DNA of 11,111 nucleotides, taken from IMG/VR virus record IMGVR_UViG_2563366932_000013; one strand, given 5' to 3'. How positions within the stretch are numbered: the first letter of the stretch is position 1; every line of letters starts with the position of its first letter. The notes beneath the pieces are model-generated. The model did no database searches, had not been told where the DNA came from, and saw nothing but the letters and a program-made list of their open reading frames with translations. Origin of the DNA: a virus (taxonomy: Duplodnaviria > Heunggongvirae > Uroviricota > Caudoviricetes). The position numbers were made by a program, and so were the translations under genes. Below, piece after piece: positions 5,374 to 11,111 of the stretch.

Positions 5374-5582
5374 TCAGTAATTATGTACTGAAGGAGGTAA
5401 TTCTTTATTCTTAAGTCTCATCCATGCGGAAAGATTCGTTGGTCCGTCTGGCTCATTGATATCAACATCTCGTGTGTGATTGATTAAAACGTCTCTCGCC
5501 ATATCGATAATACGGGAGAACTCATAACCGCAGTCATGACATCTGCCGGAATAGTTCGATTGAATTTGTTTTAGCGCCGGAT
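5374..5582 (-). pseudogene. 3-prime fragment (about 69 codons) of a gene whose 5-prime part was lost at the IS911 junction
   Basis: The six-frame ORF 5374..5631 runs into the IS: its first 16 codons are IS-end sequence, so only the C-terminal portion ([32 protein letters not shown]...SVHNY) is non-IS DNA. I do not recognise the family. Confidence 0.45.
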
Positions 5583-5654
5583 TGAAGTGGTTTACTGAAT
5601 TTGGCCACCTGAACAGAGGTGATATGCTCACCTCAGAACAACACAGGTGCCATA

Positions 5655-6802
<1,148 letters not shown>

Positions 6803-6832
6803 CTCGGTGGCCAGTTTTTGTTGACCACTTCA

Positions 6833-7003
6833 ATGCAACAGTTCGCTATTGCAGGGGCGGCATCGGTTCGCCCTTTCAACCCGATTTTATCGGTACAGCA
6901 TTCACGAAAAAACATTTTAACCGGAGCAGACTTTAAACAACCAAGAATGAAAAGCTTGCTCGAAAAGCTTTGGGATATTTTGAAACAACAAGGCCGTCCA
7001 TGA
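6833..7003 (+). CDS. cIII: cIII-like protein
   Basis: 56-aa ORF whose ATG (6833-6835) immediately follows the IS right end. N-terminus MQQFAIAG resembles lambda CIII MQYAIAG, and a central SLLE...DIL.Q.G.P stretch is similar. It sits first in an operon followed by erf, as in lambdoid/P22 pL operons. Confidence 0.5.
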   Translation: MQQFAIAGAASVRPFNPILSVQHSRKNILTGADFKQPRMKSLLEKLWDILKQQGRP

Positions 7004-7158
7004 GTTTTACGGATAACTGGTCAGACGAAGAATTCATTCGTCAGATAAAAGAATTAATCGGTAACGAAGGAGATATTCATGTCACTTGCAACCACAGTGA
7101 AGGAGAGCAAGTTACAGAGACGCATGTACACGCAGAAAGCTCTCTGGTATCGCCATAA
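7000..7158 (+). CDS. Small hypothetical protein (52 aa) at the position that kil occupies in the P22 pL operon
   Basis: ATG at 7000 overlaps the cIII-like stop (ATGA). Acidic small protein MSFTDNWSDEEFIRQIKELIGNEGDIHV... Positional inference only; the sequence is not recognised. Confidence 0.4.
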   Translation: MSFTDNWSDEEFIRQIKELIGNEGDIHVTCNHSEGEQVTETHVHAESSLVSP

Positions 7159-7259
7159 TGGTGACCGCGAAGGAATGCGGGTATGCCTTAATTTGTCCCG
7201 AGTCGAAGTATTAAATCAGCGTTATTTCCTTGGGCCGTGTCCATTCTGAGAGCAATCAT

Positions 7260-7865
7260 ATGAGCAAAGAATTTTACGCAAGACTGGCAGCTATTCAGGA
7301 GAATCTGAACGCGCCAAAGAATCAGTACAACTCATTCGGCAAATATAAATACAGAAGCTGCGAAGATATTCTTGAAGGCGTTAAGCCGTTACTGAACGGT
7401 CTGTTTTTATCAATCAGCGATGAAGTTGTGTTGATTGGTGATCGGTATTACGTGAAAGCCACGGCAACTATTACCGATGGCGAAAACAGTCATACGGCAA
7501 CCGCTCTTGCACGAGAGGAAGAAAGCAAGAAAGGAATGGATTCTGCACAAGTTACGGGAGCTACAAGCTCTTATGCACGCAAGTATTGCCTCAATGGTTT
7601 GTTCGGCATTGATGATGCGAAAGATGCAGATACAGACGAGCATAAACATCAGCAGAACGCAGCAGCAAAGCAATCAAAACCATCACTTACACCTGAACAG
7701 GTTCTAAAAGCATTCACTGACGCAGCAATGCAGAAAAACACCGTAGAAGAGCTTAAACAGGCGTTCGCCAAAGCGTGGAAGATGCTCGAAGGGACGCCGG
7801 AGCAGCACAAAGCGCAGGACGTTTACAACATCAGACGAGACGAATTAGAAGGGGCAACTGCTTAA
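7260..7865 (+). CDS. erf: Erf single-strand annealing protein (essential recombination function)
   Basis: From ATG at 7260 the protein begins MSKEFYARLAAIQENLNAPKNQYNSFGKYKYRSCEDILEGVKPLL..., matching P22 Erf as I remember it almost residue for residue in the N-terminal domain. Stop TAA at 7863-7865. Confidence 0.9.
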   Translation: MSKEFYARLAAIQENLNAPKNQYNSFGKYKYRSCEDILEGVKPLLNGLFLSISDEVVLIGDRYYVKATATITDGENSHTATALAREEESKKGMDSAQVTGATSSYARKYCLNGLFGIDDAKDADTDEHKHQQNAAAKQSKPSLTPEQVLKAFTDAAMQKNTVEELKQAFAKAWKMLEGTPEQHKAQDVYNIRRDELEGATA

Positions 7866-8248
7866 TGGCACATTCGATTACAGTAAGACTAAACAAACCC
7901 GCAAGAGAGTTTCAGGGCGGGGAAAATATCGGATTCAACATCCGTGCTGGCGTTCAGTATTACGATCGCCAGACAAAAAAGAAAGAATGGACAAACTACA
8001 GCGCCGTTGTATTTGCCAAGCCGGGAGCGCAAGCGGATTACTATCGTAGCGTTCTGGTTGAAGGAGGCATTGTAGAAATTACCGGAGAAAACATCAGGGT
8101 TGATGTTTATCAGGGGCAAAATGGTCAATCAATCACTCTTGAATTACTGAATGCAAAGATTGGATTTGCAACTTCAGGAAACAGCCAACAGCAGCAAAGT
8201 AGCAATCATCAAAATAATCCTGAATACGACGATTCCATCCCATTCTGA
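7865..8248 (+). CDS. Phage SSB-like OB-fold protein with acidic C-terminal tail
   Basis: 127-aa ORF, ATG overlapping the erf stop (TAATG). Ends ...QQQQSSNHQNNPEYDDSIPF, echoing the E. coli SSB C-terminal tip DDDIPF preceded by a Gln-rich linker. The N-terminal part has an OB-fold-like pattern (EWTNYSAVVFAKPG...VEITGE). Confidence 0.65.
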   Translation: MAHSITVRLNKPAREFQGGENIGFNIRAGVQYYDRQTKKKEWTNYSAVVFAKPGAQADYYRSVLVEGGIVEITGENIRVDVYQGQNGQSITLELLNAKIGFATSGNSQQQQSSNHQNNPEYDDSIPF

Positions 8249-8271
8249 TTTAGAAAAATAAGGATTTAATT

Positions 8272-8568
8272 ATGCCAGCGCCTTTGTATGGTGCGGATGA
8301 CCCGCGCCGCTGTTCCGGCAATTCCGTATCGGAGGTGCTGGATAAATTCAGAAAAAACTACGATCGAATAATGTCTCTACCGCAGGAAACGAAAGAGGAA
8401 AAGGAATTTCGCCACTGTATATGGCTTGCAGAGAAAGAAGAACGCGAGCGAATTTACCAGACATCAATCCGACCATTCCGCAAAGCCACATATACCCACT
8501 TCCCTGAATATATCGACCCGCGCCTGCGTAATTACCGCTCACGCTATGGCGCTATCAGTAATGACTGA
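8272..8568 (+). CDS. Hypothetical protein (98 aa), basic and helical
   Basis: ORF with SD AAGGA 8 nt upstream of ATG 8272. Its position after erf/ssb and its size are similar to where anti-RecBCD abc genes lie in P22, but I cannot confirm this by sequence. Confidence 0.5.
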   Translation: MPAPLYGADDPRRCSGNSVSEVLDKFRKNYDRIMSLPQETKEEKEFRHCIWLAEKEERERIYQTSIRPFRKATYTHFPEYIDPRLRNYRSRYGAISND

Positions 8569-8662
8569 GGAATTTACCATGAGAGGACTTGCTTAAGAGA
8601 AAGAGTTTCGGTTCTGTTAATGACAACAAATATCTGAATGCGATGTGGCGGAGTGGGAAGAA

Positions 8663-9181
8663 ATGAAACAAATGTCACTAATTGAGATGGATGGTTTTCT
8701 GAAAGGTAAATGCATCCCAAGTGATTTAAAGGTTAACGAAACAAACGCTGAATACCTTGTCCGTAAGTTCGGTGAACTTGAATCAAAACTGGAAACGGCG
8801 TTGCGGGAGTGTAGTTCTGCTGGAATCACGATTGATAACCTTGAGGCTAAATGCGCGAAGATGGCTGCTGAAAATACCTCACTTAAGCAATCTGAGAAGG
8901 AATTTAATGACTTTTGTCGTGAGGAGTTTAGCGAATGGGAAGATGATGTTACTGAAACCCCAGCCACCGATGCTTTTCTGGCTGAAGTGCGGGCGCAGGG
9001 GGTGGATGCTGCTATAGAAGCTGCAAAAAATCTGGTGGCCCAAGAATATGAGTATAAGGATTTCAAAGCGGCGCAGAGTGATTGCTGTATGCACCCTGGT
9101 TCAGACCTGGTAGGGAAGGTTGAAATGACTGAGTGGTTAGTTGACTTTGCTGCCCAGCTTCGCAAAGGAGGCAACCAGTGA
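8663..9181 (+). CDS. Hypothetical protein (~172 aa), acidic, predicted helical/coiled-coil
   Basis: Long ORF in the same orientation as the operon. Start taken as ATG 8663; the track starts at the GTG at 8645, which is also possible. Not recognised. Confidence 0.5.
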   Translation: MKQMSLIEMDGFLKGKCIPSDLKVNETNAEYLVRKFGELESKLETALRECSSAGITIDNLEAKCAKMAAENTSLKQSEKEFNDFCREEFSEWEDDVTETPATDAFLAEVRAQGVDAAIEAAKNLVAQEYEYKDFKAAQSDCCMHPGSDLVGKVEMTEWLVDFAAQLRKGGNQ

Positions 9182-9477
9182 CTGTATGTCTTATTGATAA
9201 ACGTCGACGTGGGCAACAAATACCATCTGTTGAAATGCCGAATCACACATGGTTTTGCGTACTTGATATCGATGGTATGGATTCGTTGGTTGACACTCGT
9301 CATTACTGCGATACCGCAACAGCTACTCCGGCGAAAGCAAAGAAAATGGCTGCTCTGATAGAAAACTGGACTCCACCTGATGGTTGGTGCAATGGGAATG
9401 ATCGAGATTGGCACGAAAAAATGAAGGGCTATATCTGCGATTTTTTACGTAAATGCAACGGCTTCAGGGGGATGTGA
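9178..9477 (+). CDS. Hypothetical Cys-rich protein (99 aa)
   Basis: GTG start at 9178 overlapping the previous stop (GTGA), with a strong SD AAAGGAGG 6 nt upstream. Six cysteines. Not recognised. Confidence 0.5.
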   Translation: MTVCLIDKRRRGQQIPSVEMPNHTWFCVLDIDGMDSLVDTRHYCDTATATPAKAKKMAALIENWTPPDGWCNGNDRDWHEKMKGYICDFLRKCNGFRGM

Positions 9478-9478
9478 T

Positions 9479-10051
9479 ATGACCAAAATTAACTATCAGG
9501 CACTGCGTGAGGCGGCAGAACGTGCAATTCCGGCAATGGAACGCCTGTTAATGTTGCCAGTTGATGATGATTTGTTAAGTGAACAGGAACTTAAGGATTA
9601 CGGTGTGGATATTGATGCGCTCAACGCCTTCAAATTTCTGACCGGACCAGAAACCGTGCTGGCGCTGCTGGATGAACGGGAAAGAAACCAGCAATACATC
9701 AAACGCCGCGACCAGGAGAACGAGGAAATTGCGCTAACGGTAGGGAAGCTGCGCGTTGAGCTGGAAGCTGCAGAGAAGCGCATTGCAGAACTGGAAGCCG
9801 AACCTGTAAGCCAAACTTACAAGTTGAACGAGCTGTCGGGCAACTATCCGGTAACTCCGGATGGTTGGATAAGCTGTAGTGAGCGAATGCCCGCTCAAGA
9901 TGATTGGATTTTAATTTATTCAAAGCACGGCGAGTATATGGCAGGACAGGTACAAGGGGAATACGTGGAGTTGAGCGACGGCACTTTATCGTGGTTAGGG
10001 AACGCCTTGTACTGGATGCCTCTACCGGAACCGCCGCAGGAGGTTAATTGA
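9479..10051 (+). CDS. Ead/Ea22-like protein with C-terminal DUF551-like domain
   Basis: ATG 9479 with SD AGGGGGA. N-terminus MTKINYQALREAAERA and C-terminal W...SERMPAQDDWILIY...WMPLPEPP pattern resemble prophage Ead/Ea22-family DUF551 proteins as I recall them. Confidence 0.6.
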   Translation: MTKINYQALREAAERAIPAMERLLMLPVDDDLLSEQELKDYGVDIDALNAFKFLTGPETVLALLDERERNQQYIKRRDQENEEIALTVGKLRVELEAAEKRIAELEAEPVSQTYKLNELSGNYPVTPDGWISCSERMPAQDDWILIYSKHGEYMAGQVQGEYVELSDGTLSWLGNALYWMPLPEPPQEVN

Positions 10052-10245
10052 TGGTCTCCTTCGCGAAATATACGATTATTGACTGGATAGCATTCATTCA
10101 GGTTTTGCTCATCTGGTTTTATATGGCTTACAGGAGTGGACAGTGGATTGTCAGTGTAGCCTGTAGCAATGGATGGCGTTGGTGGAACCGAAAGAATAAA
10201 AAAAGCGCTGGCCTTGGCTTCGTTTTACGAAGCATTCAATCTTAA
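10051..10245 (+). CDS. Small hydrophobic protein (64 aa), one predicted transmembrane helix
   Basis: ATG 10051 overlapping the upstream stop, SD GGAGG 7 nt upstream. Hydrophobic stretch IIDWIAFIQVLLIWFYMAY followed by a Trp/Arg-rich tail. Confidence 0.4.
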   Translation: MVSFAKYTIIDWIAFIQVLLIWFYMAYRSGQWIVSVACSNGWRWWNRKNKKSAGLGFVLRSIQS

Positions 10246-10328
10246 CAGTCTTCAGCCTGGTTCTGTCGTTGTAGTCACCACTCAAAGCGGCATGACGATA
10301 CAAATTCACAAGCCAAAGGAGGAAGGTC

Positions 10329-10613
10329 GTGGCTAACCTGCAACTTGCCGTTAAAGGTGAATACTTCGATGCCATGATTCGCGGAGAGAAAACGGAAGAG
10401 TATCGCCTGTGTAATGACTACTGGAATAAGCGAATTATGTTCCGCGAGTATGACCGCCTGATTATCACAAAGGGATATCCGAAGCGCGACGATTCCAGCC
10501 GCAGAATTGACGTCCCGTATGACGGATATGAAATCAAGACAATCACACATCCGCACTTCGGCGATAAACCGGTAAAGGTGTTCGCTATAAAGGTGAATAT
10601 CGACAATGAATGA
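10329..10613 (+). CDS. ASCH / DUF3850-like (PUA-like beta-barrel) protein
   Basis: GTG start 10329 with a strong SD AAAGGAGGAAGG upstream. LQLAVKGEYFDAMIRGEKTEEYR... resembles ASCH-domain prophage proteins from memory. Confidence 0.5.
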   Translation: MANLQLAVKGEYFDAMIRGEKTEEYRLCNDYWNKRIMFREYDRLIITKGYPKRDDSSRRIDVPYDGYEIKTITHPHFGDKPVKVFAIKVNIDNE

Positions 10614-10614
10614 T

Positions 10615-10670
10615 AATCCTCGCACTCGCGGGGATTTCTTTTATCTGAACTCGCTACGGCGGGTTTTGTT
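10615..10670 (+). terminator. Tandem hairpin / U-tract terminator-like region after the ASCH-like gene
   Basis: Hairpin AATCCTCGC-ACTC-GCGGGGATT (10615-10636) followed by TCTTTTAT. A second short hairpin CTCGC-TACG-GCGGG (10650-10663) is followed by TTTTGTTTT. Confidence 0.4.
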
Positions 10671-10685
10671 TTATGGAGATGATAA

Positions 10686-10853
10686 ATGCACTTCCGAGTC
10701 ACAGGTGAATGGAATGGAGAGCCATTCAACAGAGTTATCGAAGCAGAGAACATCAACGACTGCTATGACCACTGGATGCTGTGGGCGCAGATAGCACATG
10801 CAGACGTAACTAATATTCGAATTGAAGAACTGAAAGAACACCAAGCCGCCTGA
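10686..10853 (+). CDS. Small hypothetical protein (55 aa)
   Basis: Not in the ORF track (below its length cut-off). ATG 10686 with SD GGAGA 6 nt upstream; hand-translated as MHFRVTGEWNGEPFNRVIEAENINDCYDHWMLWAQIAHADVTNIRIEELKEHQAA, stop TGA 10851-10853, ending inside a terminator hairpin. Confidence 0.4.
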   Translation: MHFRVTGEWNGEPFNRVIEAENINDCYDHWMLWAQIAHADVTNIRIEELKEHQAA

Positions 10854-10866
10854 TGGCGGTTTTTTA
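10844..10866 (+). terminator. Rho-independent terminator
   Basis: Stem AGCCGCC / GGCGGTT (10844-10850 and 10855-10861) with loop TGAT, followed by a T run to 10865. Confidence 0.55.
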
Positions 10867-10910
10867 TTGCCTGATTTGCAGGTTCGATTCCCTATTCGGA
10901 GATAGCACTC

Positions 10911-11111
10911 ATGCAACACGAACTACAACCTGATTCACTGGTTGATTTGAAATTCATCATGGCCGATACTGGCTTCGGTAAAACCTTCATCTATGACCGG
11001 ATTAAGTCCGGCGACCTGCCAAAAGCCAAAGTTATCCACGGGCGAGCAAGATGGTTATATCGTGACCATTGTGAATTCAAAAATAAGCTCTTAAGCCGCG
11101 CCAATGGGTAA
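10911..11111 (+). CDS. AlpA-family helix-turn-helix regulator / excisionase-like protein
   Basis: 66-aa ORF, ATG 10911 with SD GGAGA. LVDLKFIMADTGFGKTFIYDRIKSGDLPKAKVIHGRARWLYRDHCEF fits the AlpA / phage excisionase HTH pattern (recognition helix with TIY, then a basic wing with W). Stop TAA is the last three bases of the window. Confidence 0.7.
   Translation: MQHELQPDSLVDLKFIMADTGFGKTFIYDRIKSGDLPKAKVIHGRARWLYRDHCEFKNKLLSRANG

Follow-up and report, generated by a model that had tools for sequence, protein, structure and literature searches.

Closest described systems

In the lambdoid phages lambda and P22, a series of small genes lying between the recombination genes and the excisionase gene (xis) is transcribed early from the PL promoter and is non-essential for growth. 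Here we describe the equivalent region of an 11,111-nucleotide (nt) stretch of DNA, IMG/VR record IMGVR_UViG_2563366932_000013 (the whole stretch is referred to as the window), in which seven co-oriented open reading frames (ORFs) occupy positions 8272-10853. Sequence comparison identifies this seven-gene block as the accessory early-left tail of CUS-3, a P22-like Escherichia coli K1 prophage that has already been sequenced, so that the element itself is already known. Our reading is that the block is a CUS-3 early-left accessory segment which was stranded by a deletion and whose role is modulatory. We give this reading as a whole a probability of about 0.85.

CUS-3 (CP000711; genes ECRS218_0056-0063, hkaJ, hkaH and others) and phage phiv205-1 are 99.9% identical to the window at the nucleotide level from erf to orf55, and the same value is obtained for positions 7230-11111. 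CUS-3 has the same gene order, the same argW site and the same cargo (neuO and an endosialidase tailspike). It differs from the window, which carries an extra A in the DUF4752 gene and has lost about 25 kb next to the insertion sequence (IS) ISEc52. Positions 7000-11111 are 100% identical to the corresponding regions of APEC O1, ATCC 11775 and other strains, and at least 80% of this segment is covered in 110 of 5426 complete E. coli genomes. In complete E. coli genomes the layout is found between a tRNA-Arg gene (argW) and dsdC. In terms of annotation, this names the E. coli K1 stretch as the stranded early-left accessory region of CUS-3. It also corrects a preliminary description of this DNA, made from the sequence alone, on three points: ORF1 is Abc2, ORF5 is a pseudogene and the survival of the block is no evidence of selection.

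The ea region of P22 (abc2, orf56, eaE, orf45, eaF, eaD, eaI, eaA, eaG, eaC, xis) shares both its operon position and its order (abc2, orf56, eaE and, finally, xis) with the block. Abc2 is 93% identical, and the window also has segments homologous to orf56, EaE, EaD and the DUF551-bearing end of EaA. In contrast to P22, however, the window has a gene for a single-strand DNA binding protein (SSB)-like product in place of abc1, its excisionase is the AlpA-type TorI rather than P22 Xis, and ORF4 joins EaD-like and EaA-like parts in one protein of 190 amino acids (aa). P22 has no homologues of DUF7739, DUF4752, the ASCH protein or Orf55.

Lambda's exo-xis region (orf60a, orf63, orf61, ea22, ea8.5, orf55) also lies between the recombination genes and xis, and the block follows its order from ea22 to orf55 and xis. 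Lambda Orf55 is 98% identical to its counterpart in the window, and the N-terminal and coiled-coil part of Ea22 is 54% identical. Lambda nevertheless uses Exo, Bet and Gam where the window has Erf, SSB and Abc2, and the C-terminal domain of Ea22 is replaced in the window by DUF551 ('Ea22 V2', PMC10834534). Homologues of orf60a, orf61, orf63 and ea8.5 are absent from the window. The block thus consists of co-oriented small genes between a recombination module and xis, with homologues in both phages. The preliminary description had placed it between the recombination genes and an AlpA-family regulator, at the operon position where lambdoid phages keep counter-defence genes. The position is right: it is the distal part of the lambdoid early-left operon, ahead of xis (here torI).

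The CPS-53 (KplE1) remnant of E. coli K-12 (intS ... yfdP-yfdQ-yfdR-yfdS-yfdT-ypdJ-torI) occupies the same argW-dsdC site, its IntS and TorI proteins are 100% identical to those of the window, and it likewise has small co-oriented genes upstream of torI. The cassettes themselves are not the same: the resemblance to YfdS is confined to the first 40 residues of ORF2, and K-12 has gtr genes where the window has neuO and the endosialidase.

Gene content of the block

The elements of the block are listed below. Annotations from the NCBI Prokaryotic Genome Annotation Pipeline (PGAP) are included where they bear on the state of the gene.

8272-8568, + strand: ORF1, abc2, anti-RecBCD or RecBCD-co-opting protein (Pfam PF11043; PHROG 656 'abc2 anti-RecBCD'; PDB 8b1t/8b1u)
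8583-8666, + strand: DUF2737 (P22 orf56) remnant with neither N-terminus nor start codon; its stop overlaps the ATG of ORF2 (ATGA); PGAP pseudogene, 'missing N-terminus'
8663-9181, + strand: ORF2, EaE-like acidic coiled-coil protein (hkaH of CUS-3), 172 aa, isoelectric point (pI) 4.5 (PHROG 614, E 4e-67)
9178-9477, + strand: ORF3, DUF7739, a small stand-alone alpha/beta protein (Pfam PF24881)
9479-10051, + strand: ORF4, Ea22-family protein with a C-terminal DUF551 domain (Pfam PF13935, E 1e-29; PF04448, E 6e-11)
10051-10336, + strand: ORF5, DUF4752 gene, a frameshifted pseudogene in this lineage with an extra A in 10198-10204; predicted N-terminus hydrophobic; PGAP 'frameshifted'
10329-10613, + strand: ORF6, probable small ASCH (PUA-like) domain protein, 94 aa (PHROG 625, E 1e-51)
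10686-10853, + strand: ORF7, counterpart by homology of lambda Orf55 (lambdap35) and final gene ahead of xis (PHROG 676)

The seven + strand ORFs first described at 8272-10853 are all present, but this count missed an eighth element, the N-terminally truncated DUF2737 (P22 orf56) remnant, and PGAP starts ORF2 at the ATG at 8663 and not at the GTG at 8645. Only two ORFs had been credited with recognisable folds. This is too few, since four score above the Pfam curated cut-offs (Abc2, DUF7739, Ead_Ea22 with DUF551, and DUF4752) and, beyond these, ORF6 has a sub-threshold ASCH match and ORF7 is lambda Orf55. Every ORF of the block has a PHROG family. Searches of PDB by sequence with ORF2, ORF3, ORF4, ORF6 and ORF7 gave nothing significant.

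ORF1 had been included among the uncharacterised genes. It matches Pfam PF11043 along its entire length (E 4e-62; 206.8 bits against a cut-off of 25; residues 1-98 of the protein, positions 1-97 of 97 in the profile) and PDB entry 8b1t ('Anti-RecBCD protein 2', in complex with RecBCD) with an E-value of 1.4e-56, in addition to its identity with the P22 protein. P22 Abc2 contacts RecC at its Chi-recognition domains, a step proposed to give the phage recombinase access to the products of RecBCD (PMC9836394); given this degree of similarity, we infer that ORF1 binds RecC in the same way. The proposal that the block might hold an anti-RecBCD gene is correct to the extent that abc2 is there, but this gene is already well characterised and belongs to an Erf-SSB-Abc2 Rec module rather than to the remaining cassettes. 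The other two genes of the module lie directly upstream in the early-left operon:

7260-7865, + strand: erf, single-strand annealing protein (Pfam ERF, E 4e-44; PGAP 'ERF family protein')
7865-8248, + strand: SSB-like gene (PHROG 44 'single strand DNA binding protein', E 3e-29; weak TIGR00621 match)

Lambdoid Rec modules have been described as an annealing protein together with an SSB and an anti-RecBCD protein (Genome Res 2025, PMC12315714). As in the described types, the Erf, SSB-like and Abc2 genes are contiguous and presumably co-transcribed, with no notable difference.

The DUF2737 remnant aligns by BLASTX with residues 28-53 of the P22 orf56 product (62% identity). The gene is intact in 45 related loci, and the truncation is also found in the CUS-3 RS218 record. 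ORF2, which follows it, is 64% identical to P22 EaE over residues 60-113, and its first 40 residues (8663-8782) are 72% identical to the N-terminus of K-12 YfdS (locus L089, 9515-9634). The C-terminus of YfdS is a DUF551 domain, as in ORF4. From these alignments, the N- and C-terminal modules of ea proteins seem to be shuffled independently.

ORF3 matches DUF7739 over almost the whole profile (76.2 bits against a threshold of 27; residues 1-96 of the protein, positions 1-95 of 98 in the profile). The family is narrow: clustering at 90% identity leaves 46 groups, and 1.84 billion proteins yield 72 representatives at 50% identity. Its genes always lie in the early-left operon, usually with their translation coupled to that of whichever gene precedes them. 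Distant homologues in Plesiomonas, Serratia and other enterobacteria keep this operon position, although the neighbouring genes are unrelated: in three of four such contexts (L092/L093 4795-5300, L094 4552-5300 and L095 1257-1981) there is a 4-nt overlap with the upstream gene, which encodes, depending on the case, a TraR-like zinc-finger protein or an HNH-like protein of 150 aa. We considered whether the EaE-like, DUF7739 and Ea22 genes form a conserved three-gene module. This arrangement is limited to close relatives and was rejected because the neighbours of distant DUF7739 genes are unrelated. The folds nearest to the DUF7739 model are the DNA mimic DMP12, a CdiI immunity protein and YfbM, while a fold search of BFVD with DUF7739 returned nothing informative. 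A role as a DNA mimic, suggested by the DMP12 match, was rejected, since the pI of the protein is a neutral 7.6 and not the low value of an acidic DNA mimic.

ORF4 carries the Ead_Ea22 signature in residues 3-104 (104.3 bits against a cut-off of 27), which comprise an N-terminal segment and a central coiled-coil; the 54% identity with lambda Ea22 concerns residues 1-81 of the latter. The C-terminal domain of lambda-type Ea22, for which a nuclear magnetic resonance structure exists, was not found in ORF4, there being no alignment past residue 104 and no PDB match. The C-terminus is instead DUF551 (43.5 bits), and the combination of Ead_Ea22 with DUF551 is the 'Ea22 V2' architecture of some Shiga toxin (Stx) phages (PMC10834534). 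At the protein level ORF4 matches P22 EaD in its middle and EaA at its C-terminus, and its DNA is a patchwork of pieces from the separate eaD and eaA genes of HF4s.

ORF5 was initially taken as an intact gene, which is not borne out. As called (10048/10051-10245), it is only a 5' fragment of the DUF4752 gene. Alignment shows seven A residues at 10198-10204 where CUS-3 RS218, HF4s and HK106 have six. DUF4752 (PF15944) is therefore not intact: profile positions 2-47 of 84 are in frame and the rest lies in the +1 frame past the A run, and the two halves match positions 1-53 and 49-92 of PHROG 667. The seven-A allele makes up approximately 7% of E. coli copies (about 4 of 60 sampled rows of 539 records, in a spread sample with a 121-nt query), and the next sampled rows have six A residues in otherwise identical sequence.

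ORF6 falls below the gathering threshold of ASCH (PF04266), with 14.3 bits instead of 21.2 and only residues 6-28 aligned, and no ASCH chain was recovered from PDB in a sequence search with a profile built from 35 homologues. The ASCH signature motif is GxKxxExR. ORF6 has the corresponding motif G19-E-K-T-E-E-Y-R26, in which G19, K21, E24 and R26 are invariant in the 35 homologues. An AlphaFold2 model was obtained with a mean predicted local distance difference test score (pLDDT) of 86. Its ten best Foldseek matches in PDB include the ASCH proteins 3iuw, 5gus/5y6c and the YqfB structure 9kyh, together with other chains that carry no ASCH label; the match probability reaches 0.99, but the E-value is only 1e-2 and the template modelling (TM) score about 0.5. 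YqfB is an N4-acetylcytidine (ac4C) amidohydrolase. ORF6 is probably a binder or hydrolase of RNA or of a modified nucleoside.

ORF7 is identical to lambda Orf55 (NP_597778) at 54 of 55 residues, and is the last gene before torI here as Orf55 is before xis in lambda. A modelling study proposed for Orf55 a small inhibitor fold resembling T7 Gp2 and phi29 p56, and a possible action on RNA polymerase (PMC8614690).

Operon layout

The sequence itself confirms the close coupling reported in the preliminary description. The stop of ORF2 and the start of ORF3 overlap as GTGA at 9178-9181, with an AAGGAGG site ahead, and the TGA of ORF4 (10049-10051) overlaps an ATG at 10051 that is preceded by a GGAGG site. 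The strong Shine-Dalgarno sites are thus present and can be read directly. In addition, a single nucleotide separates the stop of ORF3 from the ATG of ORF4 (9475-9481), and the ASCH gene starts with a GTG at 10329, again with AAGGAGG ahead.

A crude consensus scan of positions 6800-11111 found no sigma70-like promoter on either strand, compared with 6.8 +/- 2.2 in shuffled sequences. The apparent scarcity of internal promoters agrees with transcription of the segment as one long message from PL. Towards the end of the block a pattern scan identified the following element:

10843-10868, + strand: terminator-like hairpin with a T-run, overlapping the ORF7 stop upstream of torI (RNA fold -13 kcal/mol, z -2.9)

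Two further terminator-like hairpins are present on the + strand at 10615-10666, within the 72 nt that separate the ASCH gene from orf55.

Two antisense ORFs were considered and rejected. The first (8617-9414, - strand, 265 aa), opposite ORF2 and ORF3, is spurious: no PHROG family matches it, and among relatives the frame stays open for anything from 93 to 340 codons. The second (10275-10625, - strand, 116 aa), opposite the ASCH gene, is annotated as ECRS218_0062 in the CUS-3 GenBank record, and its sole PHROG match probably derives from the annotation of a spurious ORF.

Selection and cassette exchange among relatives

We sampled 80 related IMG/VR loci for the ratio of non-synonymous to synonymous substitution rates (dN/dS) and for cassette arrangement. 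Homologues of the block genes gave dN/dS values of 0.12 for the ASCH protein, 0.18 for ORF7, 0.31 for Abc2, 0.34 for DUF7739 and 0.60 for DUF4752 (the last with few changes). Values below 1, together with the PHROG families, indicate that the ORFs of the block are real phage genes and not chance ORFs.

More than 40 gene arrangements are found around ORF3 in these loci. The genes after abc2 are independently exchangeable mosaic cassettes. The frequent alternatives are recombinases, SSB, an Rv2179c-like exonuclease, YfdQ/YfdR-like proteins, DUF2737 and variants of Ea22/DUF551; no known anti-restriction family was found among the cassettes that occupy the block slots in these 80 loci. One HK106 gene in the ASCH slot (locus L005, 4926-5726) was considered as a possible DNA-modification gene (DpdA-like) that would point to an anti-restriction slot, since it carries the RefSeq label 'queuine tRNA-ribosyltransferase'. 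It was rejected because no Pfam match supports the label at E <= 0.05.

Genes for DUF7739, Orf55, the small ASCH protein and the coiled-coil EaE/Ea22 proteins occur widely in lambdoid prophages and are apparently under purifying selection. They are reasonable, but unremarkable, entries for systematic screens of accessory genes.

Origin of the reduced prophage

The left boundary of the surviving early-left region is defined by two features:

5583-6834, + strand: ISEc52 (IS3 family), with the left edge of the roughly 25-kb deletion at its right end (PGAP 'IS3-like element ISEc52 family transposase')
6851-7003, + strand: kil homologue, the first surviving early-left gene, 17 nt past the IS end (PHROG 550, E 1e-22; the CUS-3 and HK106 ORFs are annotated as Kil)

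ISEc52 is inserted in ant, of which a remnant is present at 5374-5631 (- strand), and matches in other genomes break at 5582 and 6834. Other strains carry the same ISEc52 in ant within a full prophage, and in one of them, AH21I008, the sequences which flank the junction of the window are about 25.7 kb apart. In APEC O1, which does not have the IS, about 30 kb lie between the matching points. Morphogenesis genes are found in this interval, together with the repressor gene, cro, cII and the replication and nin genes, this latter set being upstream of erf. The reduced form therefore arose by a single recent IS-adjacent deletion of about 25 kb. This took PL, N and the immunity, replication, lysis and head genes, and left the genes from kil and erf to torI without nucleotide divergence. 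The kil gene encodes a toxic inhibitor of cell division. It lies in the same orientation as the transposase and could, together with erf, abc2 and the ea genes, be expressed by outward or read-through transcription that originates in the IS.

The complete reduced arrangement occurs in only 3 of the 5426 genomes. Its rarity and the 100% identity to the early region of full-length CUS-3 prophages imply that there has been no time for selection, and no phage remains to be protected. The argument that the block survived the reduction of the prophage, and may for this reason be functional, consequently fails: a single deletion accounts for the arrangement, and two elements of the block (DUF4752 and DUF2737) are broken. 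The block is a recent and probably neutral passenger, not a selected survivor, in a dead prophage that has lost the native promoter.

The same data bear on the idea that the block was retained after the reduction for some benefit to its bacterial host, such as stress tolerance. K-12 has a different remnant between argW and dsdC, with yfdQRST upstream of torI. Overexpression of these CPS-53 genes affects the initiation of replication, and yfdS (DUF551) and yfdQ have been linked to tolerance of H2O2 and methyl methanesulfonate (PMC4776307). The N-terminus of ORF2 resembles that of YfdS. However, a reduced form that is present in three genomes and 100% identical to the active-type prophage leaves no time for selection, the block no longer has its native promoter, damage has already reached two of its genes and the same deletion also kept the toxic kil. 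We consider a domesticated, host-beneficial block the least probable of the explanations discussed here.

It might also be supposed that the ORFs are simply on their way to becoming pseudogenes and that none is functional now. The frameshift in DUF4752, the truncation of DUF2737, the death of the prophage and the loss of PL all point in this direction. Yet the other six ORFs are of full length and identical to those of inducible-type CUS-3 prophages, the DUF2737 truncation is shared with the CUS-3 RS218 record, dN/dS is below 1 across the families and the frameshift is a minority allele in E. coli. We regard general decay as highly improbable.

Probable function of the cassettes

In an intact CUS-3, transcription from PL after infection or induction would be antiterminated and would yield one polycistronic message that extends towards torI (xis) and includes kil, erf, ssb, abc2, the ea cassettes and orf55. 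The short overlaps and strong ribosome-binding sites would couple translation of adjacent cistrons. Abc2 would bind the RecC subunit and make RecBCD, otherwise a threat, assist the phage recombinase, as has been shown for P22 Abc2. By analogy with lambda and Stx phages, the remaining cassettes most likely modulate host physiology and the lysis-lysogeny decision early in infection. The ea22 gene of these phages has a reported pro-lysogenic effect on phage development (PMC7093339), and the best-studied homologues, lambda Ea22 and the exo-xis region, have been linked by experiment to the lysis-lysogeny decision and not to defence evasion (PMC7093339, PMC10834534).

The preliminary description had proposed instead that the block consists of candidate anti-defence or host-takeover genes. 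In its broader form, this would mean a counter-defence island in which, besides Abc2, at least one of DUF7739, ASCH, Orf55, the EaE-like protein and Ea22-DUF551 inhibits an anti-phage system. The block does share an operon with abc2, in the early region where lambda keeps gam and ral, and small, fast-shuffling cassettes of this kind are typical of accessory regions (bioRxiv 10.1101/2023.04.06.535777). Several of the proteins have suggestive properties: the coiled-coil proteins encoded by ORF2 and ORF4 are acidic, DMP12 and the CdiI immunity protein are the nearest folds to the DUF7739 model, and Orf55 has been modelled like T7 Gp2 and phi29 p56 (PMC8614690). No tool result, on the other hand, supports counter-defence for any block ORF other than abc2. 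When the block ORFs were compared with the PADLOC defence models, all matches had E-values of at least 0.014. No sequence or profile link of the other ORFs to described anti-defence proteins was obtained, and PHROGs labels only Abc2 as a host-takeover protein and lists each of the others as of 'unknown function'. Moreover, DUF7739, with its pI of 7.6, is not an acidic DNA mimic, the frequent alternative cassettes in related loci are not known anti-restriction genes and the documented phenotype of Ea22 is pro-lysogenic (PMC7093339). The proposal was also vulnerable to the ORFs proving to be characterised proteins or decayed genes, and this is what was found for some of them: one is the well-characterised Abc2, and ORF5 and the neighbouring DUF2737 remnant are decayed. 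We regard a counter-defence island as unlikely, although the similarity of DUF7739 and Orf55 to inhibitor-like folds gives it some weight. A little more doubtful still is the possibility that at least one of the cassettes known only at the family level is a new small inhibitor that lambdoid phages use against a host nuclease, toxin, defence effector or RNA polymerase, for which DUF7739, ASCH and Orf55 are the best candidates.

A modulatory accessory segment of CUS-3 thus remains the best explanation, and a number of points weigh against it. The modulatory role is argued from lambda and Stx homologues of a single gene (Ea22) and from experiments in other phages that addressed the region as a whole. 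The promoter depletion comes from the crude consensus scan described above. IS3-family elements can drive outward transcription, so that the block may not be silent in its present context. Homopolymer A runs readily undergo reversible slippage and may also slip during transcription, and through its seven-A run DUF4752 may be leaky or switchable rather than dead.

Flanking regions

The window opens at the ATG of intS, followed in order by neuO, the tailspike gene, the 3' end of ant, the IS3-family element and a run of + strand genes of which torI is the last. An Rfam scan of the window found no RNA family. The operon is closed by:

10911-11111, + strand: torI, AlpA-type excisionase and TorR inhibitor (PGAP 'response regulator inhibitor TorI'), located where the prophage ends on the dsdC side (attR in the CUS-3 record)

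The 'AlpA-family regulator' noted earlier after the block is indeed this protein, which is 100% identical to K-12 TorI. It also matches the PADLOC model mad1 (AlpA-like) with an E-value of 8e-14; we read this as the common AlpA-type helix-turn-helix and not as a role in defence.

The tailspike is of the endosialidase type and has 981 aa. At its 5' end the O-acetyltransferase gene neuO (1398-2174, - strand) has a heptanucleotide, GAGTCTT (coding strand AAGACTC), repeated 18 times without mismatch (2044-2169). Since 18 is a multiple of three and the ORF of 258 aa is open, this phase-variable gene is switched ON. The window and CEA212U, the nearest complete genome, differ by 70 nt; this difference probably lies in the neuO repeat (70 nt would equal 10 copies).

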